Source: a virus. Taken from it: a stretch of 63,228 bases of DNA. This document shows positions 40,375 through 63,228 of the stretch, piece after piece. The stretch is taken from IMG/VR virus record IMGVR_UViG_3300020595_000002, positions 1-63,228 of that record. One strand, given 5' to 3'. The notes beneath the pieces were generated by a model. It saw nothing but the letters and a program-made list of their open reading frames with translations, ran no database searches and had not been told where the DNA came from. The position numbers and the translations under genes were made by a program. Within the stretch, counting starts at the first letter, position 1; the number at the start of each line of letters is the position of its first letter.

Positions 40375-40527
40375 ATGGGCGAATACAAAATAATTACAGG
40401 TACAGACTCAGATTGTCAGATGAAGCTCAATCAGTGGAAGCATCAATATAACCTCGATATCCTGCAAATGTCCGTGAGGGCAAGTGACGGTTTTGTGGTG
40501 ATTTTACTGGTAAGACACAAGAAATAG
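40375..40527 (+). CDS. 50-aa hypothetical protein (below the ORF-track cutoff)
   Basis: SD GGGGTGA. MGEYKIITGTDSDCQMKLNQWKHQYNLDILQM... The stop overlaps the first bases of the tRNA-like element. Confidence 0.45.
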   Translation: MGEYKIITGTDSDCQMKLNQWKHQYNLDILQMSVRASDGFVVILLVRHKK

Positions 40528-40676
40528 GGCTGTGGCGGAATTGTGGTAGACGCTATTAGTAGGCAAACGGAGCAGGAATCATAACCTGTGCGACATACGA
40601 GAGGTCGCTCCCTCGTATCTGTATAGCAAAAATTGTCCGGGTAGCCGTGTGAGTTCAAATCTCATCAGCCCTTCCA
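40526..40676 (+). ncRNA. Aberrant tRNA-like element (151 nt)
   Basis: Perfect 7-bp acceptor stem AGGGCTG/CAGCCCT. U8. D-arm GCGG-aattgtGGtag-ACGC. T-arm GTGAG-TTCAAAT-CTCAT. Discriminator T plus CCA. About 95 nt (instead of about 22) lie between the D and T arms. Confidence 0.45.
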
Positions 40677-40703: not shown

Positions 40704-41195
40704 ATGCCAACAGCAGTAGAAATGCCAAAGTACAAATGCCACAAGGAAGTCTGGGCGCTGAAGATTGCAAAGATAGAAAAAGACAGTGACGTTGCCGCAA
40801 TTGAGGACAGAGAGACAGACGGTGCAGCCACGCTTTCATTTGAGGAAGATGGTTATGGCGATATCATAGTCAGCCCATCATACGTGAGAAAACACAACCC
40901 ACAAGTCGGTGGATATTACGTGGTTTATCAGGACGGATACAAATCATTCTCACCGGCAGAGGCTTTTGAGACTGGATATACCAGGATGAACTCTGATTAT
41001 AAGAACAGAGTTGTTGAAGAGAAAGAGCAACTTGATATAAAAATATCGAAACTGTCAGCTTTTGTTTTTTCAGGGAAATTTACCGAGATTGAAAACATCA
41101 AAGAGCGCGAATACATGGAACGCCAGCTTCACTACATGATGGATTACAGCAGATGTCTCCGCGAGCGCATTCTTTCGTTTAATAATTCTCGTTAA
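40704..41195 (+). CDS. Hypothetical protein
   Basis: SD AGGAG 8 nt before ATG 40704. 163 aa. Confidence 0.6.
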   Translation: MPTAVEMPKYKCHKEVWALKIAKIEKDSDVAAIEDRETDGAATLSFEEDGYGDIIVSPSYVRKHNPQVGGYYVVYQDGYKSFSPAEAFETGYTRMNSDYKNRVVEEKEQLDIKISKLSAFVFSGKFTEIENIKEREYMERQLHYMMDYSRCLRERILSFNNSR

Positions 41196-44609: not shown

Positions 44610-47600
44610 ATGGATTATAGCCACGTAGACCTTGATTCTGTCTTTGATGGAATAGATACCGAAAACAATACATCATCTCCCAAGCCTCAGAAGAAACCTG
44701 TACAACAAAAAGTAGACTATAGCGGTGTAAATCTTGATTCTGTCTTTGACGATGTTCTGGGACCGCAGAAAGAAACTTCCTCTCCTGCTTCTCCTTCTGT
44801 CCAGCGACAAGAGCAGCCTGTCTCTCGAAATGTTGATTACAGCAATGTAGACCTGGACTCGGTTTTTGATGATGTGCTTAGTGGTGGATCAAGTACCGAA
44901 AGGGTTTCTCATGACCGTAATCTTCTAAGCGATATCGGCAGTCATGCACTTCGAGGCGGAGCTAAAGCAGTTGAGCAGATTGGCCGGGGGATGCAGGTTG
45001 TTGATGGCGATTACAGCGACGACGAAGGTTTTCTTGATACAACCGGCAAGAAACTTCAGGAGTTTGGCGAGAACGCACCAAAGAAATTTGATTATCTCAA
45101 GCCCGATGCAGCCGAAGGGACCGACAAAGAATCATGGTTCAAGCAAAAGGCCATGGAAGGTGTTGAATCGCTCGGACCTTCAGCCGTTCCCTTTGTTGCC
45201 GCAGCAGGGACAGGAGCCGCAGTTGCAGCAGCCGGAGCTAGCGCACCTATCACCGCACTTGTTGCAGGAGGAAGTGGTCTTGCCGCTCTTCTTGGAACCT
45301 TTGGCGCAGGTACATACCACGAAAAGAGACAGGAATATGATGGTGTCCCAGGTCTTACCGAAGATCAAAAGCACGTTGCCGCTTTAAAACAGGCTGGTAT
45401 TGAATCTGGCGGTGAGCTCGTCAGTGATATTATCCTCATGGGAATTGGCAAACTTGTCCCGGGTGCAGGAAAAGCGGTTTCTGATGTGGCAAAGAATGGA
45501 ATCAAAACCCTTCTTTCCATGTCTCCAAAGCAGTTGGCAAAGCAAGCAGGAAAGGTTTATCTCGCAGAATGGGGAACAGAAACAGGGCAAGCCTATCTTC
45601 AGTCCGGTATCGATGCCGACCTTGGAGTAGGTGAGCGAATGACTATGCTCGAAGCGGCAATTGAAACAGCAATACCCACGGCTGTAATGACCCTTGCCCT
45701 TGGATCAGCGACAGGCGCCTATAACGTTCGTCAAAAGCAAAAACTTTTTAATCAGCTCAACAGCGAAAATGAAGAGATGCGGATTGCCGCAGCGAATAAC
45801 GTATATGGCACCTTAAAGAAGCAGGACAATGAAGTAGCTGAAGCATGGCGTTCTTTCTCTTCAGAAGCTATCTCCAATGGAAGCCCAATAGATGTAAAAG
45901 CTGATTTTCTTAGCAATCCAACCGGAGAGCAAAAGCCGGACGGAACTGTTTCTAAAGCCGTTGACTCTTCTCTTAAATCTCAACCTGGCACAATCTCCAA
46001 AGCCATACCAAACCAAGACCTCTCAGCAGTTGACCGGATGGAGAACGATCTTGCAAGCCAACCCGACAACGACCTCATTTCTTCAATGATAGATGGTGAA
46101 GTTGACATCCAGGACCAGGCAGACGCGAGGAGCAGAAAGAATAAGTTTGCCGACCTCATGAAGAATTATGAGCAGTTTCAGGCAAACAAGACCGACAAGA
46201 AAACCGCCAAGGAATCAGCAGAAGTTTTTCAAGCCAATCCAGAACAGAGAAATCAGGAATACGAGCAGAAAGAAAAAGACCTTAACGAAACCTTCAGAGC
46301 ATACTTTGCCGAACAGGAAAGACAGGCTGAAGAGAATAAGGCCAAACTCCAAGGCGGTAATATTACCGAGCAAGAAGCCAAAGACTTTGAGGACCGCGTA
46401 AATAAAGAACGTCAGCAATGGGCTAAAAAGAATCGCTCAAAGGCCGCTCAGCGAAAGATTGAAAAGGCCAGTACCGAAGTTGAGCAGGAAGAAGATAGCG
46501 CAGAAGAAAGCCTTTCTTCCGTTCCTTTTGAGGTAATGGCGCAGGCGAAGAAAGAAGCTGAAAATACAGTTCGTGAAGATCCGCGTTATCAAGAGATGGC
46601 AGAGGCCAGAAAGCGAAACGGCATAAACATCTATGACGCAAAGAGTTTCTTTTCTCATACCACAATTGCCGCGCTCAATAAAAAATATCCAGGGCTTTTT
46701 CAAGGTGGACAACTGGCCGTTCAAGGTGATGCTCTTCGAGTAGATGAATATGCTCAGGAGAAAGGTTACACATCCGCTGACGAGATGATAAACAACTGGC
46801 TTTCTGCACCATCGATAAAAGCTGAAACGGCGAGGATTGCCAAAGAGAACGTTGCTGAATGGGAACGGTATGAAAACCTTCAGAAAGAAGATGAAAAAGC
46901 GGCCTCAGCTACAACAACCCAGGAGAAAGGGAACACTGTTGCGCCAGGGCCGCAGCAAACCACTTTACCAGAAGTTGAGAAGATTACCAATAAACAATCG
47001 ATTGCTCATGGCCAGGAAGTAGCTACAAACCCAACCGATGCACAGAAGGAAGCGGAAAACTACAAAACAGCCAAAGTCAATGTCGATGGCCTAAAGATCT
47101 CCGTCGAGAATCCTGCAGGTTCAACCAGATCAGGAACAGACCCAAGCGGTAAAGAATGGTCTGTGAAGATGAAAAACGACTATGGCAGAATCCTTGGTTC
47201 AAATGGCTACGACAAAGACCATGTAGATATCTTTGTTTCACCTGGCTACAAAGGCGGAACCAAATACGCCTATGTCGTTAATCAGCATAATAAAGACGGT
47301 TCATTTGATGAGCATAAAACTGTTGTTGGCGTAAGCAGTGAGCAGGAAGCACTCGACCTCTATAACTCCAATTATAAAAAAGGCTGGACAGGTGGCAAGT
47401 CCGTTACCCGTCTACCAATGGCGGCTTTCAAGAAATGGGTAGGCGGGACCGGACCGGCAAAGGGAGAATTGCGCCGGAGCCGGACCGTCGATTTTCAGCA
47501 GGAGAGAAGCAATGATATTCCTCAATCGTCTGGAAATACGGTGGCTAAAACCGAGAATAGGACACCTGTTGCTGATGAAAGAAGCAATACAGCAATCGGA

Positions 47601-50600
47601 AAACCAGCAGTTGAAAGAGGGAGCAACCGAGAAGATAGAAAAGGTGCTCAAGAAAAAACGCTCACTCCTGCCAATATTCCAGCGAAGGAAGCCGAAAAAG
47701 AACAGGATGATCAGGCCGCGCTGACTCCACGGCAAAAGCAATTCTTAGGTTTTCTCAAATCTGATGCAGAAAACAATCGGCCTGCAATGATACCAAACGA
47801 GAAGAATAAGCCTGTTTATGAATCTCTCGTTAAAAAAGGGCATGCCGAAAAAGAGGGTAACGGTTATGTACTCAAGAAAGTGGAAGATACTCAATCTCTT
47901 GGAAATCAAGATATTCAGCAAGGAGTACCGGAGAAAGGAAAGGGAAGTAAAGAGGTTGCTGAAACGGCTGAAACAGGGGAAGGAAATACCTCAGTTGAGC
48001 AGGAGAGAGTTGGAGGTGATCGAGGGGAATCTGTAGACAAAGAGAATCTTGCCACACACGCTGGCGGAAGTAAAACTTACCAAAAAGGACGAACACAAGT
48101 TAAGCCTGGCGAACTTGGAAGAGGAATAAAGACTAATAAGGCGGTACGGGAATATGTAGAAAATATAAAAGAATCTGGCAAAGTTAAGCCAGTAGAAATA
48201 ACCAGTGACGGTTTTATTGTTGATGGCGAACATCGCTATTCCGCAATGGTTAAGATGGGTGTTGACGATATACCTGTTTTCGTTGGTGAGCAGCTTGGAG
48301 CTTCAGGGAGGCTTGTGTCCCCATACTCTGGAATAAGTGTTGATGTTGTTGTCCCTAACGAAACAGCATCAAAACCAGTTGCCGCTCAAAAACCCGAAAA
48401 TGTGAGCGACAAACCTAAGTCTCGCAAAGCCGAGCCTCCCCCTCAGCAGGAATTGCCGGAAGGTAAGGAGGGGGTGACTGATTTTCCATCGCTCACCGAA
48501 GAAGGACGGCGCACAGACGGAAAGCCTATAAAGCCAGGAGATGTATTCAAAACATCAACAGGCAGGACAACTACACCTTATCCAAAATATTCCACCAAGA
48601 GAACTACAAAGCCCGACATTCGCAGGATGAACCAATGGCTTATTGACAATTATAAATCAGAAGCAGAGGCACGCGGAGACGATTTTAATCAGACTCTTGC
48701 AAAAGGGATGGATGCCGGTAATTTTTCAATTGCTGATGCTGAGGGAATTAATCTGTATCTTTTTAGGAAGCAACAAACCAAGCCAGCAGTTAAGGAAAAC
48801 GTACCTGCTACCGACACCAATGTCGACACCAAAATAACCAACCTCAAAGAACTAACCGACTTCACAGACAAATTAAAAAACGGAACCGTAACGCCAGAAC
48901 AACTAAAACAGGCATATGCTTCAGCAGTAGAAAGCAAAGAAGCAATCCGAGCAGAGTTGGCCAAGAAGACCAAAAAGCAATTGGCACCTCTTGCCGGCTA
49001 CATGAGTTCGAGTGATAAAAAATCAGCTTATATAAAATCCGCATACAGTAATACCATGCAGGGCTTTGTTCCTTCAATGTCAATGTCATGGTCCCCATTC
49101 TCCGAAACAGTTGAAGAGGCTGTACAGCGCAAGGTCAATGAAGCGACTCAAGAGCAAATAGACCAGTATGCCAAGGAAATTGCTGAGGTCCGAGAACGCA
49201 ATAAAAAGTATTACGAGAGCAAGATAAAAGGCGTTACCAACCCTGAAACCCTTGAAGAGTTTAAAACCTTCATTCAGATCAAGGGTAAGGACAAGCTCTC
49301 TGAAGAACAATTACAGAGTTATGAAAAGCTCATAGCTGATAAGAATATCGAAACCAGAGAGCAGCAGCAGGAAAGAAAGGCAACCGTTCAAGGCGTGTCT
49401 GGTGATGTTGATTATGAACTTGCCGAAACGCATCATGCCAAAAAAGATATTCCTCTTTATGTAGTCAAGCTCACCGGAGAAAAATTACCGAGAGAGAGAT
49501 TTTCTGAACTGAGAACCAAGGCCAAGCAATTAGGAGGATGGTATTCTCGTTTTCGTGGCAGTGGTGCAATACCTGGATTTCAGTTTGAGTCTGAAGAGTC
49601 ACGGCAGAACTTTGTTGATGTTCTTTCTGGGGAGACGGTTAAAGATACTGAAACTGTTGAGAAGAAACAGGAAGTTAAAACTAAGAAAAAAGTCTCAAGG
49701 TTACGAACTGTAGCCGAACGATTACAAAAAGCAGGAGAAGAGAAACTTAATCAAGACCGACTCACCAATACAGCTAAACGAGCAAGAGAGGCAGGTTACG
49801 CTGAAGCCAGCGCGAGAACCGATATCGCCACAGCAAAAACCATGCTCAACCTTGCCGATGCTATTGACTCAGGTGAAGCTAAGTATTTGAACGGAATATC
49901 CGCAAAAACTCATCTTGATATACTCAACTCATTACTTAATCGTGCCAAGAATGATGCTGATAAGGACATCCCTTACCGTGATCAAGACAGACACAGAGAG
50001 CCAGTTGAGTCAGATGTAAAGTTTGTTAGTTACATTTATCCGTCTGCTGACAAGTCGTCTCTATACAGTTGGGCTGGAAGTCTTGAAAAGGTTCGTGGGG
50101 GAAAGCGTGTTGCTTCAAAAATAGAAAGTATTGGTCGCGCATTGAAAGAAGAGAACCGCTACTATTTCCAAAACGACATCGATCTGCTACGTGATGTTAT
50201 TAAAAAAATTCCAGATGAGTTTAAATATTCTACCGTAGCTGACACTTTAAAGAACTACGACCGTCTCCAAAGAATCGGCCTCACCGACGAAGCAACCTTA
50301 AAAACAGCACTCCGCGAATATATCCAATTCAAAGACACCGGACCAAAGGTAGACAAGGTAAAAGAACTTGAGCGCTCACTCGTTGGTGAAAAGAACGGAG
50401 TAGATTTCTTCCCAACACCAAGAGCAAAAGCGCAGGAGATTGTTGACAGAGCAGATATTCAGCCTGGCATGAAAGTTCTTGAACCTTCAGCCGGAACCGG
50501 AAACCTTGCCGAAGTTATGCGAGAGGCCGGCGCAGAGGTTGAGGTCGCTGAAATCTCACCAAGGCACAGAGAATTGCTTGAGGCCAAAGGTTTTGATATT

Positions 50601-53600
50601 GTCGAACATGACTTCATGGATATGGAGTCAGGCCAGTACGACCGCATAGTAATGAATCCACCTTTCTCCAAGAATCAAGATATTGAGCATGTAGAGAAAG
50701 CGTATGAATTGCTCAAACCTGGCGGCAAACTTGTTTCAATCATGGGCGAAGGTGCTTTCTTCAGACAGGGTAAAACTGAAACTGCATTTCGTGAATGGCT
50801 TGACGAGGTTGGTTATTCCGAGAAACTGCCTGAAGGTTTTTTTACCGACAGAAGAGAGTTGCGTACCACTGGTGTTAATGCGAGAGTGGTTGAGATTGAG
50901 AAACCAGAAGATGTAAGCGAGTCATTAGAAAATGACTTCTCCGCAGGACTTGTAAGAAAACAAGAAATCAGCCTCAGCGAACTTTTCCAGAAAACACAAA
51001 CCGCAACCGACAATCCGCAGGTTCAAAAACTCAATGAATTACTGTACAGCTTTGTACCAGAATCAAAACTTAATATACCAGTTGTAATTGATCCATCTAT
51101 TACCGCGGCAAAGTACAATGCTCAGGCAAACATGATCACTTTGCGAGATCCGAGTATTGCCCCATCAGCATTACATGAAACTGTTCATGCGGTAACTGTC
51201 AGGGAATTATTTCACGAAAAGAACCAAGCTACCAGGAACAGACTTGCTCGAGTAATGAACAAGGTTAAGCGAGAGGTTGTTGCTCAAGGATTAATTTCAA
51301 GGAAAAATCTTATTGCCATTGAGAAAGCAGGAACGAGCAAGAATTATAAAAGTCAGTTTCCTGAAGGATATTTCAGCGGAGTAGATCATATCTCATATGC
51401 GTTTCTTAATGAAAAAGAGTTTCTTGCCCAGGCGTTCAGCAGCCCACAGTTTCAAGACCTGCTTAAAACGGTAAAAGTCAGAGAGAAAGGAAAGCTCATT
51501 AGTGCCTGGGAGTCTTTTGTTCGTGCGTTGATGAAGATTCTTGATATCAAAGGCACTCACGAAACAGCCTTTGGAGAGGTTTTGGAGATTGTTGCAGAGT
51601 TAGCCGCTTCTGAGAATATAGCAGAAGAAACAAAAGGCGAGTCAAGAAACGAAGAATTGGCATTACCAGATATCTCAAATATCACCGCACCATTCACCGG
51701 CATAAAATCAAGAGCAGTAGCCCTTGCAGAAAAGTACATGCCAAAAGACCGCAGGGAAAAGATAGCAACCTACCTGTGGGACCAAAACGCAGCCGTGGCC
51801 AGGGTGCAACGTGAAATAGGCGAGAAGCCCGAATCGCAGGACTATAACCTTATAAGCAGACTATCCGGTAAGAAGATTGCCGATGAAGTAAAACGCTTTA
51901 CTGAAGACACCCTTGATCCTCTTTTGCAGGACATGGCAGATAATAACGTTTCTTTTAACGAAGTTCATGACCTTGCTTGGGCGCAACATGCTCCAGAGCG
52001 AAACTTGCAGATGAAGCGGGTTAATGCCAGAAGATACGTTGATGAGATGCTTGCCAACATGACCGATACGCAGAAGCGCAAATACCAAGACAGACTTGGC
52101 GACCTGCAAGATGAAATGGTCATGGACGATAAGGATATCAACTTCAAGAGAGATGGCTATATCGAGCTTATGGACGAGCTCGTTGAAAGCGTTCCTCAAC
52201 TCATAGCTGAACGAGGCGATTCCAAAACGGCACTAAAAGAAACCGCCAAACTTCAGGAAACAGCAGAGCAGTGGACAGATGTTAAAGACCGACTTTCTGG
52301 AATGACCAACCAGCAGGCTGCAAATAAAATTGCAGCCCTCAAGAACAAAGACAATTTCAAGGATATCCAGAGAGCCACCAATAAACTCAGAGAGATAAAC
52401 AGAAACGCTCTTGAGATGGTCTATCAGGCCGGTGAGTATACCGACGAAGAATATGCGGCCATGAAGTCGGTGTATAAATATCACGTTCCTTTAATGCGTG
52501 AAGGAATGGAGGAAGGAAAGTCAGCTACCGGAAGAATGGGCGTAGGTCCACTTGCCAAACCGTATAAGATTGCGTCAGGGTCCACCAAAGGCGTTGTCAA
52601 TATCTTTGGCAATGTTGTTGATCGCTATCAGTCAGCTATTTCAAGAAAGCACAAACTTGAAGCTGGAAAAGTATTATTCAACATGGTCAAGGAAAACCCA
52701 GATGAAAACCGATGGGCTATCACCAAACTTGACCAGGAACCATATCTCGATAAAGAAGGAAATATCCGCTTCTATCCAGACCACAATCTCGCACCAAATG
52801 AAACAAAGGTGAAGGTTGACGGAGTGGTGCATATAATCAGTGTTCCGCGCGAGAACGAATCAATGATGCGCTGGATGGAAGCATTGAAGCGTGAACCTGT
52901 ACAACTCGGACCCGTTCTTAAAGTAAGCCAGAAGATCAACAGACTTCTTGCTCAAATGAATACTTCCTTTTCTCCAGAGTTTTTAATCACCAACTTTGCA
53001 AGGGATATTCAAACGGCAGGCATCCATCTTGAAGATACTGAAGGAAGCGGCCTGCAGAAAGAAGTTTTGAAAGGAATCAAGCCAGCTATCGCAGGTATCT
53101 ATAAATCGGAAACCGGAAAAGACGCAGGAGAATGGGGAGAGATTTATAAAGACTTTGCCAAGAACGGCGGCAAGATTGGCTGGATGCAGGACTATGAAAC
53201 CGTTGAACAGCTTGCCAAACAACTTGAATCAGAGCTTTCCTATAAGGCAGGAGAGAAACCGAAACGAGCGGCCTTTAGAAAACTGGTAAAGCATGTTGAG
53301 TCCTTAAACGTTTCAGTTGAAAACGGAGTCAGGCTTGCCACCTATAAAGCCCTTATCGAAAACGGTACTTCAAAAAGAAAAGCGGCCAGGACCGCAGCAA
53401 ATCTCACCGTTGATTTTACCAGACACGGTACGATAGGCCCGTTCATGAATAGTTTGTATATGTTTGCGAATGCCGGAATAATCGGGAATATCAGGATGTT
53501 ACGTGCTTTGTCAAGTAGCAGAAAAGTACAAAAAATAGCAGCCGGTATCTTTGGCTTTGGTTTCATGGCGAATATCCTTGGCGCATATGCTGGTGGTGAC

Positions 53601-54542
53601 GATGAGGACGGAGAGAGCTACTACGATAAGCTGAAGAGAACCAAGCCGTCTCTTTTTGAGCGCAATATGGTTTTCATGATACCGGGGACCGAAGGAAAGA
53701 TAATAAAAATCCCGATGCCGTATGGTTATAACACTCTTTTTGTTATGGGAAATGAAACGGCAAGCGCTGTTCGTAATGTTACTGGTAATGTAGAAGGTTA
53801 TTCACCAACTGAGGGAATGGCGAGAGTTGGCTCAACACTGATGAATACCTTTAATCCCATTGGTTCGTCAACTCTTCTACAAACAATTATGCCAACTGCA
53901 GGTGATCCCATAGCCCAGGTATTTGAAAATAAAGCATGGCATGGTGGAAATCTCATGCCAGGTGATAATCCTTTTGGTATTCCAAAGCCGGACAGTGAGC
54001 GATATTTCAAGTCAGTCAATCCGATTGCCAAGTTTGCAACCAGGTGGGTAAACGATATCACTGGAGGAAGCAGTGTAGAGTCTGGACTGATTGACGTTTC
54101 GCCCGAGACAATAGAAATGCTTTTTGAAACCATGACCGGCTCACTTGGACGCTTGGCAAAAGATTCTCTTTCCCTTCCAATATCAGCGGCTACCGGACAG
54201 GAGATAACTTCTAATAAAATTCCTTTTGTCAGAAAAGTGTTTGAAGGAAAGAACGAATACGCCGACCAGCAAATATATGTCGAGAACAGGGATAATGTAT
54301 TACGCATCAAAAAGATGTATGAAGCTGCAGCTACTCCAAAGGGAAAAAGAGACATCAGAAGCGATCCAAAGACCGCACTTATCGGTTATGCAAGTGATGC
54401 AGAGAAGCGATTGCGACGACTAAGAAAACGCCGTAAGATTGCGGAAAGTAACGATAACGAAAGGATGCAGGAGCGTATTGAGAAAAGCATTAACCGGATT
54501 TACCTAGACTTTAACCGCAAATACAATCAAGTTTCCGGCTAA
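44610..54542 (+). CDS. Giant (3310 aa) multidomain 'polyvalent' protein with ParB-like, N6-adenine MTase and HExxH peptidase-like domains; probable virion-packaged/injected protein
   Basis: Single uninterrupted ORF. ParB-type IVDGEHRYSAMVKMGVDDIPV (48115-48292). MTase motif I LEPSAGTGNL and motif IV NPPF (50395-50905). HETVH (51174-51188). Hydrophobic Gly/Ala segments near both ends. Confidence 0.8.
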   Translation: MDYSHVDLDSVFDGIDTENNTSSPKPQKKPVQQKVDYSGVNLDSVFDDVLGPQKETSSPASPSVQRQEQPVSRNVDYSNVDLDSVFDDVLSGGSSTERVSHDRNLLSDIGSHALRGGAKAVEQIGRGMQVVDGDYSDDEGFLDTTGKKLQEFGENAPKKFDYLKPDAAEGTDKESWFKQKAMEGVESLGPSAVPFVAAAGTGAAVAAAGASAPITALVAGGSGLAALLGTFGAGTYHEKRQEYDGVPGLTEDQKHVAALKQAGIESGGELVSDIILMGIGKLVPGAGKAVSDVAKNGIKTLLSMSPKQLAKQAGKVYLAEWGTETGQAYLQSGIDADLGVGERMTMLEAAIETAIPTAVMTLALGSATGAYNVRQKQKLFNQLNSENEEMRIAAANNVYGTLKKQDNEVAEAWRSFSSEAISNGSPIDVKADFLSNPTGEQKPDGTVSKAVDSSLKSQPGTISKAIPNQDLSAVDRMENDLASQPDNDLISSMIDGEVDIQDQADARSRKNKFADLMKNYEQFQANKTDKKTAKESAEVFQANPEQRNQEYEQKEKDLNETFRAYFAEQERQAEENKAKLQGGNITEQEAKDFEDRVNKERQQWAKKNRSKAAQRKIEKASTEVEQEEDSAEESLSSVPFEVMAQAKKEAENTVREDPRYQEMAEARKRNGINIYDAKSFFSHTTIAALNKKYPGLFQGGQLAVQGDALRVDEYAQEKGYTSADEMINNWLSAPSIKAETARIAKENVAEWERYENLQKEDEKAASATTTQEKGNTVAPGPQQTTLPEVEKITNKQSIAHGQEVATNPTDAQKEAENYKTAKVNVDGLKISVENPAGSTRSGTDPSGKEWSVKMKNDYGRILGSNGYDKDHVDIFVSPGYKGGTKYAYVVNQHNKDGSFDEHKTVVGVSSEQEALDLYNSNYKKGWTGGKSVTRLPMAAFKKWVGGTGPAKGELRRSRTVDFQQERSNDIPQSSGNTVAKTENRTPVADERSNTAIGKPAVERGSNREDRKGAQEKTLTPANIPAKEAEKEQDDQAALTPRQKQFLGFLKSDAENNRPAMIPNEKNKPVYESLVKKGHAEKEGNGYVLKKVEDTQSLGNQDIQQGVPEKGKGSKEVAETAETGEGNTSVEQERVGGDRGESVDKENLATHAGGSKTYQKGRTQVKPGELGRGIKTNKAVREYVENIKESGKVKPVEITSDGFIVDGEHRYSAMVKMGVDDIPVFVGEQLGASGRLVSPYSGISVDVVVPNETASKPVAAQKPENVSDKPKSRKAEPPPQQELPEGKEGVTDFPSLTEEGRRTDGKPIKPGDVFKTSTGRTTTPYPKYSTKRTTKPDIRRMNQWLIDNYKSEAEARGDDFNQTLAKGMDAGNFSIADAEGINLYLFRKQQTKPAVKENVPATDTNVDTKITNLKELTDFTDKLKNGTVTPEQLKQAYASAVESKEAIRAELAKKTKKQLAPLAGYMSSSDKKSAYIKSAYSNTMQGFVPSMSMSWSPFSETVEEAVQRKVNEATQEQIDQYAKEIAEVRERNKKYYESKIKGVTNPETLEEFKTFIQIKGKDKLSEEQLQSYEKLIADKNIETREQQQERKATVQGVSGDVDYELAETHHAKKDIPLYVVKLTGEKLPRERFSELRTKAKQLGGWYSRFRGSGAIPGFQFESEESRQNFVDVLSGETVKDTETVEKKQEVKTKKKVSRLRTVAERLQKAGEEKLNQDRLTNTAKRAREAGYAEASARTDIATAKTMLNLADAIDSGEAKYLNGISAKTHLDILNSLLNRAKNDADKDIPYRDQDRHREPVESDVKFVSYIYPSADKSSLYSWAGSLEKVRGGKRVASKIESIGRALKEENRYYFQNDIDLLRDVIKKIPDEFKYSTVADTLKNYDRLQRIGLTDEATLKTALREYIQFKDTGPKVDKVKELERSLVGEKNGVDFFPTPRAKAQEIVDRADIQPGMKVLEPSAGTGNLAEVMREAGAEVEVAEISPRHRELLEAKGFDIVEHDFMDMESGQYDRIVMNPPFSKNQDIEHVEKAYELLKPGGKLVSIMGEGAFFRQGKTETAFREWLDEVGYSEKLPEGFFTDRRELRTTGVNARVVEIEKPEDVSESLENDFSAGLVRKQEISLSELFQKTQTATDNPQVQKLNELLYSFVPESKLNIPVVIDPSITAAKYNAQANMITLRDPSIAPSALHETVHAVTVRELFHEKNQATRNRLARVMNKVKREVVAQGLISRKNLIAIEKAGTSKNYKSQFPEGYFSGVDHISYAFLNEKEFLAQAFSSPQFQDLLKTVKVREKGKLISAWESFVRALMKILDIKGTHETAFGEVLEIVAELAASENIAEETKGESRNEELALPDISNITAPFTGIKSRAVALAEKYMPKDRREKIATYLWDQNAAVARVQREIGEKPESQDYNLISRLSGKKIADEVKRFTEDTLDPLLQDMADNNVSFNEVHDLAWAQHAPERNLQMKRVNARRYVDEMLANMTDTQKRKYQDRLGDLQDEMVMDDKDINFKRDGYIELMDELVESVPQLIAERGDSKTALKETAKLQETAEQWTDVKDRLSGMTNQQAANKIAALKNKDNFKDIQRATNKLREINRNALEMVYQAGEYTDEEYAAMKSVYKYHVPLMREGMEEGKSATGRMGVGPLAKPYKIASGSTKGVVNIFGNVVDRYQSAISRKHKLEAGKVLFNMVKENPDENRWAITKLDQEPYLDKEGNIRFYPDHNLAPNETKVKVDGVVHIISVPRENESMMRWMEALKREPVQLGPVLKVSQKINRLLAQMNTSFSPEFLITNFARDIQTAGIHLEDTEGSGLQKEVLKGIKPAIAGIYKSETGKDAGEWGEIYKDFAKNGGKIGWMQDYETVEQLAKQLESELSYKAGEKPKRAAFRKLVKHVESLNVSVENGVRLATYKALIENGTSKRKAARTAANLTVDFTRHGTIGPFMNSLYMFANAGIIGNIRMLRALSSSRKVQKIAAGIFGFGFMANILGAYAGGDDEDGESYYDKLKRTKPSLFERNMVFMIPGTEGKIIKIPMPYGYNTLFVMGNETASAVRNVTGNVEGYSPTEGMARVGSTLMNTFNPIGSSTLLQTIMPTAGDPIAQVFENKAWHGGNLMPGDNPFGIPKPDSERYFKSVNPIAKFATRWVNDITGGSSVESGLIDVSPETIEMLFETMTGSLGRLAKDSLSLPISAATGQEITSNKIPFVRKVFEGKNEYADQQIYVENRDNVLRIKKMYEAAATPKGKRDIRSDPKTALIGYASDAEKRLRRLRKRRKIAESNDNERMQERIEKSINRIYLDFNRKYNQVSG

Positions 54543-63101: not shown

Positions 63102-63161
63102 ACATAGCCCCACGGCCTTCTAAGCCGTAGGTCACAGGTTCGAATCCTGTCTGGCGTACCA
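63102..63161 (+). tRNA. Partial tRNA-Arg(UCU) 3' segment; candidate attP core next to the integrase
   Basis: Same fold as 1-60. The upstream sequence (63076-63101) has no ACGCCAG-type 5' acceptor strand and no D-stem partner, so it is not a complete tRNA gene. Confidence 0.65.
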
Positions 63162-63228
63162 ATAAATATAGGTGGTTAAGTCGTTAAGGCTTAATCGCTT
63201 TTTTGTTTGGATATATGCCGGATATATG
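63102..63228. repeat. Terminal direct repeat, second copy of 1-127
   Basis: Identical 127 nt to the window start. Confidence 0.95.

Follow-up and report, generated by a model that had tools for sequence, protein, structure and literature searches.

The known mimics of transfer RNA (tRNA) are transfer-messenger RNA (tmRNA), YrlA, viral tRNA-like structures (TLS) and skipping-rope RNAs. Most YrlA RNAs have a Ro60-binding stem that lies apart from the tRNA-like domain and is made by their 5' and 3' ends. To our knowledge, two small RNAs of phage T4, species 1 and 2, have stayed unexplained for fifty years. The literature gives their function as unknown (PMC3014915; PMC9697503). YrlA genes adjoin Ro60, and in one species the RNA is a substrate of RNase P and of CCA addition; protection from nucleases by the tRNA-like module has been proposed (PMC4201824). 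In the tRNA scaffold of Ponchon and Dardel, chimeras produced in E. coli are recognised by cellular factors, precisely processed and protected from nucleases (PMC3753655). Among the roughly 10,000 candidate viral RNAs catalogued in 2023, tRNA-like ones are mentioned only where they overlap with ARAGORN calls (PMC10690425). Here we describe a 151-nucleotide (nt) RNA element on the plus strand of a marine temperate phage, at positions 40526-40676 of a 63,228-nt stretch that was analysed as a whole and is called the window (IMG/VR record IMGVR_UViG_3300020595_000002). We favour, with moderate confidence, the reading that the element encodes a tRNA-shaped RNA, about 151 nt long, which does not decode and would be processed by tRNA enzymes, the tRNA-like shell being the handle and the insert that it encloses the working part.

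Results

A tRNA-derived shell without an anticodon arm

The sequence-only reading of the window had pointed out an element with perfect acceptor pairing, U8, a D arm with the GG dinucleotide, a T arm, a discriminator U and an encoded CCA, and all of these are present in the letters (Table 1). The elbow and core nucleotides of tRNA found in the element are U8, A14, the A15-U48 pair, G18G19, T54, T55, C56, A58 and G53-C61. A 20-mer taken from the D arm occurs in one other IMG/VR contig (L003), within a true phage tRNA-Leu(CAA), and the match extends to 26 of 27 nt. A T arm combined with a perfect 7-bp acceptor stem and NCCA occurs at one site in the window and at none in 300 Markov-shuffled windows, with both strands considered. 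The shell is tRNA-derived and far beyond chance.

The D and T stems are 95 nt apart (40554-40648) and no 5-bp anticodon arm was found between them, which bears out the earlier description of an over-long segment lacking a canonical anticodon stem. The two hairpins described for this segment, H1 and the bulged 9-bp hairpin of the H2 domain, were likewise recovered. No repeat or mobile copy of the element was found inside the window, and a second tRNA nested in the insert was rejected for its poor pairing.

The same insert in a different shell

The insert type was found again inside a different shell at L097:5065-5213. Locus L097 lies in a provirus rated complete, the integrase of which is named in NCBI as that of Aureliella helgolandensis, a marine planctomycete, and its GC content is about 58-61% as compared to 44% in the window. 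The insert is exactly 95 nt long in both elements. Common to them are an identical 18-nt block on the 5' side (TATTAGTAGGCAAACGGA), the H1 loop AATCATWA, and a 3' block that consists of GCAAAA and then TGTCCGGRTAGCCRTG; the signature of the insert can be written as GTAGGCAAACGG ... TGTCCGGRTAGCC. The flanks of the two elements cannot be aligned, and therefore homology starts and stops at the acceptor stem.

The stems covary. RNAalifold on the two sequences gave 35 consensus pairs, ten of which are altered on both sides and still paired; among these two-sided changes are three acceptor-stem pairs, three T-stem pairs and one pair of H1. Within H1, one pair changes from A-T to T-A and one from C-G to T.G in L097, with the loop conserved. 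The H2 stem of L097 has unrelated letters at the same site and a loop ATCGCAA, the GC...GC closure is retained, and TCGC is present in both loops. The discriminator of L097 is G73. Its neighbours are a nucleotide phosphatase-like gene upstream and, 580 nt downstream, the integrase gene (L097:5794-6900).

Relatives of the L097 integrase were found without the RNA element. A two-sequence profile of the insert, run with nhmmer against the collected loci, gave no third copy of this insert type, and a sample of 401 genomes of Gammaproteobacteria, the class of a Methylococcales metagenome-assembled genome, did not contain the insert.

Judged from these comparisons, the element is conserved and modular and not a decaying pseudogene. 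A dead class II tRNA gene, disrupted by an insertion or a rearrangement but still uneroded, would fit with the facts that the element is a singleton in the phage, that tRNA detectors fail on it, and that imperfect direct repeats (TAGGCAAA and TAGCAAAA) border part of the insert. It would also fit with its uniformity: the phage recurs in several marine data sets, and all seven metagenome copies are identical, with six ENA contigs and the Logan runs matching the window letter by letter, so within-population variation carries no signal. A wrecked gene is, however, difficult to reconcile with an insert of equal length, identical blocks and compensatory stems in a provirus from another phylum, with homology that stops at the acceptor stem, and with a shell that is perfect despite having no anticodon arm. 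We consider such an origin very improbable.

Fold of the insert

Two long-range helices, P1 (GGC at 40562-40564 with GCC at 40644-40646) and P2 (CGGA at 40568-40571 with TCCG at 40636-40639), occur in the minimum free energy (MFE) folds of both homologues and in the RNAalifold consensus. They enclose H1, the H2 domain and the A-rich joining strand. In these models the insert most likely folds as a three-way junction made of P1 and P2, H1 (loop AAUCAUWA) and the variable H2. The segment 40636-40648 occupies the place of a class II variable arm. The 3' strand of P1 is 2 nt away from the T stem, as in a class II variable arm, and 8 nt separate the D stem from the 5' strand of P1. This spacing suggests that the anticodon arm has been deleted and that the insert exits on the variable-arm side.

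The small CGG-GTAG-CCG hairpin that had been read at 40638-40647 is present in the letters, but it uses bases of P1 and P2, and G40647 is replaced by A in L097, which breaks its third pair; the comparison with L097 thus favours the long-range helices. The P1/P2 model has a computed energy of -41.3 kcal/mol, and a nested fold of the intron type one of -33.5 kcal/mol. Both long-range helices also appear in the unconstrained optimum, at -46.0 kcal/mol. The helices are compatible with the data, not proven.

Positions 40596-40604 in H2 read UACGAGAGG, which we take to be the core 9-mer of the sarcin-ricin loop of 23S rRNA. This likeness is probably due to chance, since the 9-mer is not kept in L097. 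The H1 loop could form 5 bp only with the downstream start codon, and such pairing was rejected.

A family of phage tRNA-Leu shells

Searches of the region with blastn against 50,697 phage records, PLSDB plasmids and E. coli genomes gave nothing relevant. Exact and gapped patterns based on the D loop of the window copy, which demanded GGAATTG, N0-1 and GGTAGAC, returned one true tRNA-Leu and chance matches only; the usual Leu D loop is outside the reach of such patterns. When IMG/VR was scanned with the usual Leu D loop (GAATYGGTAGAC), followed by 59-115 nt and a T loop, at least 114 loci were obtained. The counts given in this and the next paragraph are among the matches listed.

Seven out of seven acceptor pairs were found in 72 of 90 candidates, against a chance of about 0.1% for seven pairs. 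At least 73 distinct shell elements with 46 different acceptor stems were recognised. They have a near-invariant Leu-type D arm with U8 G9, T loops of the TTCRANT type, and inserts of 54-99 nt. Each acceptor position is occupied by four to six pair types and is paired in at least 96% of the elements. Clustering of the 73 inserts at 70% identity gave 64 clusters, where the shuffled baseline is 53% (maximum 66%). One acceptor stem is shared by 19 shells that carry 17 unrelated inserts, and several insert types recur with differing acceptor stems. The discriminator is A73 in 53 of the 73 elements, and three of the 73 encode CCA. ARAGORN with default settings called none of them.

An element at L103:2818-2935 (+) has the acceptor stem AGGGTTG/CAACCCT, one compensatory change away from the stem in the window, also with U73, and an unrelated insert. 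Together, L097, L103 and the mixing of inserts and shells show that shell and insert are inherited as separate modules, both under selection, which leaves next to no room for a decaying pseudogene. The window copy shares with the family U8 G9 and the Leu-type D arm, the covarying acceptor stem, the canonical T arm and an exchangeable insert in the 54-99-nt range; the setting in a tRNA array, A73 and the absence of CCA, traits which are common and not universal, are not found in it.

The Rfam tRNA model was run on 20 loci, namely 19 of the shortest shell-bearing loci and L097, many of which lie in tRNA arrays. Twelve shell elements in 11 of these 20 loci passed the model across their whole long length. 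A tRNA-like identity, as the sequence-only reading had proposed, is retained here as that of a non-decoding RNA, in view of the conservation of the element, the covariation in its stems and its membership in the large phage family of tRNA-Leu shells. The refuting tests that had been named in advance have a mixed outcome. The acceptor pairing is indeed kept through compensatory changes, both in L097 and in the wider family, but covariance tools give no tRNA or tmRNA score for the window copy.

Some loci deserve separate mention. A few matches are probably true tRNA-Leu genes with mini-inserts, such as L104:6617-6733 (+), which is tRNA-Leu(UAA)-like with an insert of about 35 nt in the anticodon loop, a perfect stem TCAGA/TCTGA, a variable arm and an ACCA end. 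ARAGORN in intron mode gives it as tRNA-Arg(TCT) with a 32-nt insert; it is distinct from the anticodon-less shells. Locus L134 has a DUF2693-FD RNA (Rfam RF02926, 576-626), an RNA described as a tRNA mimic (2026 preprint), 79 nt upstream of a tRNA-Leu shell (705-853). An 82-nt tRNA-like sequence at L044:805-886 (+) has the acceptor stem GGGGGCG/CGCCTCC with G3.U70, A73 and the T arm CTGAG-TTCGAAT-CTCAG; a normal D or anticodon arm is missing and ARAGORN made no call.

The leucine-type features of the shells might have a use in aminoacylation. Leucyl-tRNA synthetase (LeuRS) does not read the anticodon, and A73 is its main determinant. According to what Asahara et al. reportedly found, E. coli LeuRS uses a Leu-type D arm with A15-U48, the placement of G18G19, a long D loop and the CCA end. 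A charged Leu-type shell could then deliver leucine, or enter EF-Tu or the ribosome, for a non-decoding job as in tmRNA. Besides the LeuRS-type features of the shell and the frequency of A73 in the family, the acyl-carrier-like protein encoded 330 nt upstream of the element would agree with this explanation. However, the discriminator is U73 in the window and G73 in L097, A73 is missing in 27% of the family among the matches listed, the restriction to leucine-type shells stems from the search pattern, and neither a tag open reading frame (ORF) nor G3:U70 is present. An aminoacylated mimic is therefore quite unlikely in our judgement.

Decoding and splicing

The window contains no tRNA or tmRNA gene according to ARAGORN. 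Rfam found no tRNA, tmRNA, ribozyme or other family in the element, at the gathering score or at E<=10, and the tmRNA mode of ARAGORN made no call at thresholds down to 80%. As compared to a decoding tRNA, the acceptor stem, the discriminator and the D and T arms are there; the anticodon arm and the detector scores are lacking. The third acceptor pair is G3-C70 and not G.U. A miniature tmRNA-like domain, which had been listed among the candidate identities, was dropped, since G3:U70 is absent, ARAGORN does not call the element as a tmRNA and Rfam does not match it. A tmRNA-like tag was also rejected: an open frame does run from GCA at 40573 into the T arm, which alone does not make a tag, and the alanine identity element G3:U70 is missing.

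An intron-bearing tRNA had been suggested as well. In its most explicit form, a class II tRNA would be interrupted after TTAGT (between 40560 and 40561) by an insert of 55-58 nt that is removed by a non-ribozyme mechanism, leaving the anticodon GUA in the window and GAG in L097. ARAGORN in intron mode, with its threshold lowered to 90%, indeed reported a 'tRNA-Tyr(GUA)' with a 58-nt intron (40561-40618) in the window. The predicted intron starts at the homologous position in L097 (TTAGT followed by AGGCAAACGG in both), where the default threshold sufficed. A helix UUAGU/GCAAA in the window and UUAGU/GCUGG in L097 is possible, the A-to-G changes retaining pairing with U, and both predicted anticodon loops have U33. 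Short unexplained inserts are on record for tRNA genes of Lak megaphages (PMC6784885), and L104 resembles a true tRNA-Leu(UAA) with a mini-insert.

The details of the predicted arms argue against splicing. When all single excisions were scanned, none gave five stem pairs, and the excisions that gave four pairs all failed to combine U33, a purine at 37 and one nucleotide only at position 26. Both tRNAs predicted by ARAGORN have U37 and 2 nt at position 26, with an A.A mismatch in the stem of the window copy and three G.U pairs in that of L097, and one Leu-type shell would read different amino acids in the two homologues. The variable-arm hairpin that an intron model needs is broken in L097, and the P1/P2 model is more favourable than the nested fold by about 8 kcal/mol. 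Inserts of 55-70 nt are far below the size of group I introns, and there are no Rfam ribozyme matches. Across the family (among the matches listed), the 'anticodons' called in intron mode are scattered over about 20 specificities, with Leu in 5 of 62, which is the chance level. The sole RNA-library sequence, a single metatranscriptome contig that spans 40446-40658, retains the insert with no joints at the contig level. We therefore regard an intron-bearing tRNA as unlikely. The element is neither a decoding tRNA nor a tmRNA, and an intron-bearing tRNA is not a convincing identity for it.

Genomic setting

The window represents a complete, circularly assembled temperate phage of 63.1 kb from marine metagenomes, with nearly all genes on the plus strand. 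Both ends of the window carry a 127-bp repeat (1-127 and 63102-63228) that includes, beside the integrase gene, the 3' portion of a sequence like tRNA-Arg(UCU). The repeat has the length of the largest SPAdes k-mer and is probably an assembly overlap of the circular genome; the partial tRNA-like sequence beside the integrase is probably attP. No full tRNA gene was found in the window. An accessory region bordered by the structural genes and by a gene for a 3310-amino-acid (aa) protein (44610-54542) contains the element. Here the order is an antirepressor gene, with isrK-like and C4-like RNAs ahead of it, a gene for an acyl carrier protein (ACP)-like protein, two small genes, the element and the gene for a 163-aa protein.

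Table 1. Features of the RNA element and of the genes on either side of it (window coordinates).
Feature	Position	Strand	Remarks
50-aa gene	40375..40527	+	TAG stop overlaps nt 1-2 of the RNA; skipped by ENA gene calls
Acceptor stem, 5' strand AGGGCTG	40526..40532	+	7/7 Watson-Crick with 40666-40672; L097 counterpart ACAGCGG/CCGCTGT, three compensatory pairs
U8 G9 (T8 G9, 40533-40534) and leucine-type D arm GCGG-AATTGTGGTAGA-CGC (40535-40553)	40533..40553	+	GG and A14/A15 present
8-nt linker TATTAGTA in place of nt 26 and anticodon arm	40554..40561	+	Same letters in L097
5' strands of P1 (GGC) and P2 (CGGA), AAA between	40562..40571	+	Partners 40644-40646 and 40636-40639
Hairpin H1, GCAGG-AATCATAA-CCTGT, 8-nt loop	40572..40589	+	L097: (A)TTGG-AATCATTA-CCAG(G)
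H2 domain: GC/GC closing pairs and bulged 9-bp hairpin (40595-40618, loop TCGCT)	40590..40627	+	
A-rich joining strand AAAAATTG	40628..40635	+	L097: AAAACTG
3' strands of P2 (TCCG) and P1 (GCC), then GT ahead of the T stem	40636..40648	+	Conserved block TGTCCGGRTAGCCRTG
T arm GTGAG-TTCAAAT-CTCAT	40649..40665	+	Canonical T54 T55 C56 A58; L097 GCAGG/CCTGC, three compensatory pairs
Acceptor stem, 3' strand CAGCCCT (40666-40672), T73 and encoded CCA (T73 and CCA, 40673-40676)	40666..40676	+	
163-aa gene: N-terminal domain and Sequestin (PF21825) sponge domain	40704..41195	+	Pfam 4.5e-17, residues 97-156

The 50-aa ORF upstream has 92 HMMER relatives (E<=1e-3), many of them 50-60 aa long and 50-65% identical, which marks it as a member of a real protein family. 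As had been noticed before, its stop codon shares the first two nucleotides of the element. The 50-aa domain also occurs in giant proteins, in up to 19 repeats. In other contigs, relatives of the 50-aa protein stand in different contexts, with no such RNA downstream.

The Sequestin family to which the C-terminal part of the 163-aa protein belongs sequesters 3'cADPR and blocks Thoeris (bioRxiv 10.1101/2025.07.12.664507). The N-terminal domain (about 95 aa) is often found by itself, in phage proteins of some 93-100 aa. The fusion may be a two-headed sponge against nucleotide-signalling defences. In 31 viral loci with relatives of this protein, no such RNA was found. The ACP-like protein and a 476-aa protein gave no relatives. 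A place beside the sponge gene fits an anti-defence role for the RNA but does not count as evidence for it.

No promoter or terminator was found flanking the element on the plus strand, and co-transcription with the neighbouring genes is therefore expected. Such an arrangement would also suit a cis-acting role, in which the tRNA shape only directs cuts by RNase P and at the 3' side, and thereby sets the 5' end and the stability of the sponge mRNA. The element begins in the upstream stop codon and ends 27 nt before the sponge start (40704), with a Shine-Dalgarno sequence in between, and the U at position -1 and the encoded CCA suit the preferences of bacterial RNase P. For punctuation alone, however, a plain tRNA shape would suffice, yet the 95-nt insert is conserved in L097 with other neighbours; moreover, the members of the family are mostly located in tRNA arrays, not before protein genes. 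A role in punctuation therefore also seems quite improbable.

Discussion

Proposed function of the RNA

The comparisons above establish the anatomy of the element, its conservation, the covariation in shell and H1, and the modular make-up of the family; processing, stability, target and action in trans are inferred. We propose that the element gives rise to a non-decoding tRNA-shaped RNA in the following way. The element would be transcribed together with its neighbours on one polycistronic transcript. RNase P would cut at 40525/40526. Bacterial RNase P prefers a 7-bp acceptor stem stacked on the T arm, U at -1 and a 3' CCA, all of which are present here. Trimming of the 3' end to the encoded CCA would release the RNA of 151 nt, which would neither be spliced nor read codons. 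As with the engineered tRNA scaffold, the tRNA-like ends and the elbow should protect it and allow it to accumulate. The functional part would be the insert, acting in trans on a conserved factor of the host or the phage. Action in trans on something widely conserved is suggested by the fact that the insert is kept across very different hosts with differing neighbours.

Several observations weigh against this proposal. The insert type is known from two sequences only, those of the window and L097. P1 and P2 are invariant in both and so have no support from covariation, the alignment of H2 was made by eye, and the fold energies are ordinary when compared to shuffled sequences (z between -0.7 and -2). 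The window copy is atypical of its family: it is solitary, its D loop is 2 nt (TG) longer than in the family consensus of the D arm, GCGGAATTGGTAGACGC, it has U73 and not A73, and its CCA is encoded. The family itself was sampled with a Leu-type D-arm pattern and an acceptor-pairing filter, so that its 'always leucine-type' character is an ascertainment effect of the pattern. The RNA-library contig is weak support, because it crosses the predicted RNase P site and DNA carry-over is possible.

A more far-reaching idea, which we put forward tentatively as a possibility, is that the tRNA-Leu shell is a natural plug-in scaffold that provides release by RNase P and stability to dozens of RNA modules, and that the module described here is a decoy or aptamer directed against a conserved host factor or a defence component. 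If the shell is indeed a handle for processing and stability, there would be a hidden reservoir of functional phage RNAs that tRNA finders and Rfam miss, and the shells would be the natural counterpart of the engineered tRNA scaffold. New here are the insert type and the range of very different hosts across which it is found, as well as its occurrence in an ordinary temperate phage outside the tRNA arrays of giant phages. The window copy is small, self-contained and directly testable.

Comparison with known systems

We did not find a large modular family of phage RNAs with one tRNA shell and a swapped middle in Rfam 15 or in the papers searched. Class II tRNA-Leu (RF00005) has the same acceptor, D and T arms, with U8, A14, A15-U48, G18G19, T54, C56 and A58; the element differs from it in lacking the anticodon arm, in having U73 and not A73, and in scoring below the Rfam and ARAGORN thresholds. 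The tRNA-like domain of tmRNA likewise combines an acceptor and a T arm with a large domain that replaces the anticodon arm. However, the G3:U70, A73, reduced D arm, pseudoknots and tag ORF of tmRNA are all absent from the element. The inserts in Lak megaphage tRNA genes are similar in being short, non-ribozyme inserts in the anticodon region (PMC6784885). For these, the eukaryotic (intron) mode of tRNAscan assigns a type and an anticodon, whereas no excision gives a canonical arm in the element.

YrlA RNAs resemble the element as non-decoding RNAs with tRNA-like D and T arms, some of which are encoded by phages (PMC4201824). The ends of the element, unlike those of YrlA, form an acceptor stem, and no link to Ro60 turned up, although no search aimed at Ro60 was made. 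The engineered tRNA scaffold also keeps the acceptor stem and the T and D arms and has the anticodon stem-loop swapped for an RNA of interest. It is man-made, based on tRNA-Lys3 or tRNA-Met, and its insert prolongs the anticodon stem, whereas the element is of the Leu type with the insert seemingly on the variable-arm side. The T4 species 1 and 2 RNAs (rnaC and rnaD; AF158101, 70908-71171) are alike in being small stable phage RNAs, of 139 and 119 nt, beside tRNA genes. The rnaD RNA has no tRNA features. The rnaC RNA ends in a canonical T arm, CCGGG-UUCGAAU-CCCGG, which is all that it has in common with the element; in a single-sequence fold it has about three terminal pairs and no evident Leu-type D arm, and there is no sequence similarity. 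With its T arm and its place beside tRNA genes, T4 rnaC is the nearest published natural analogue that we found.

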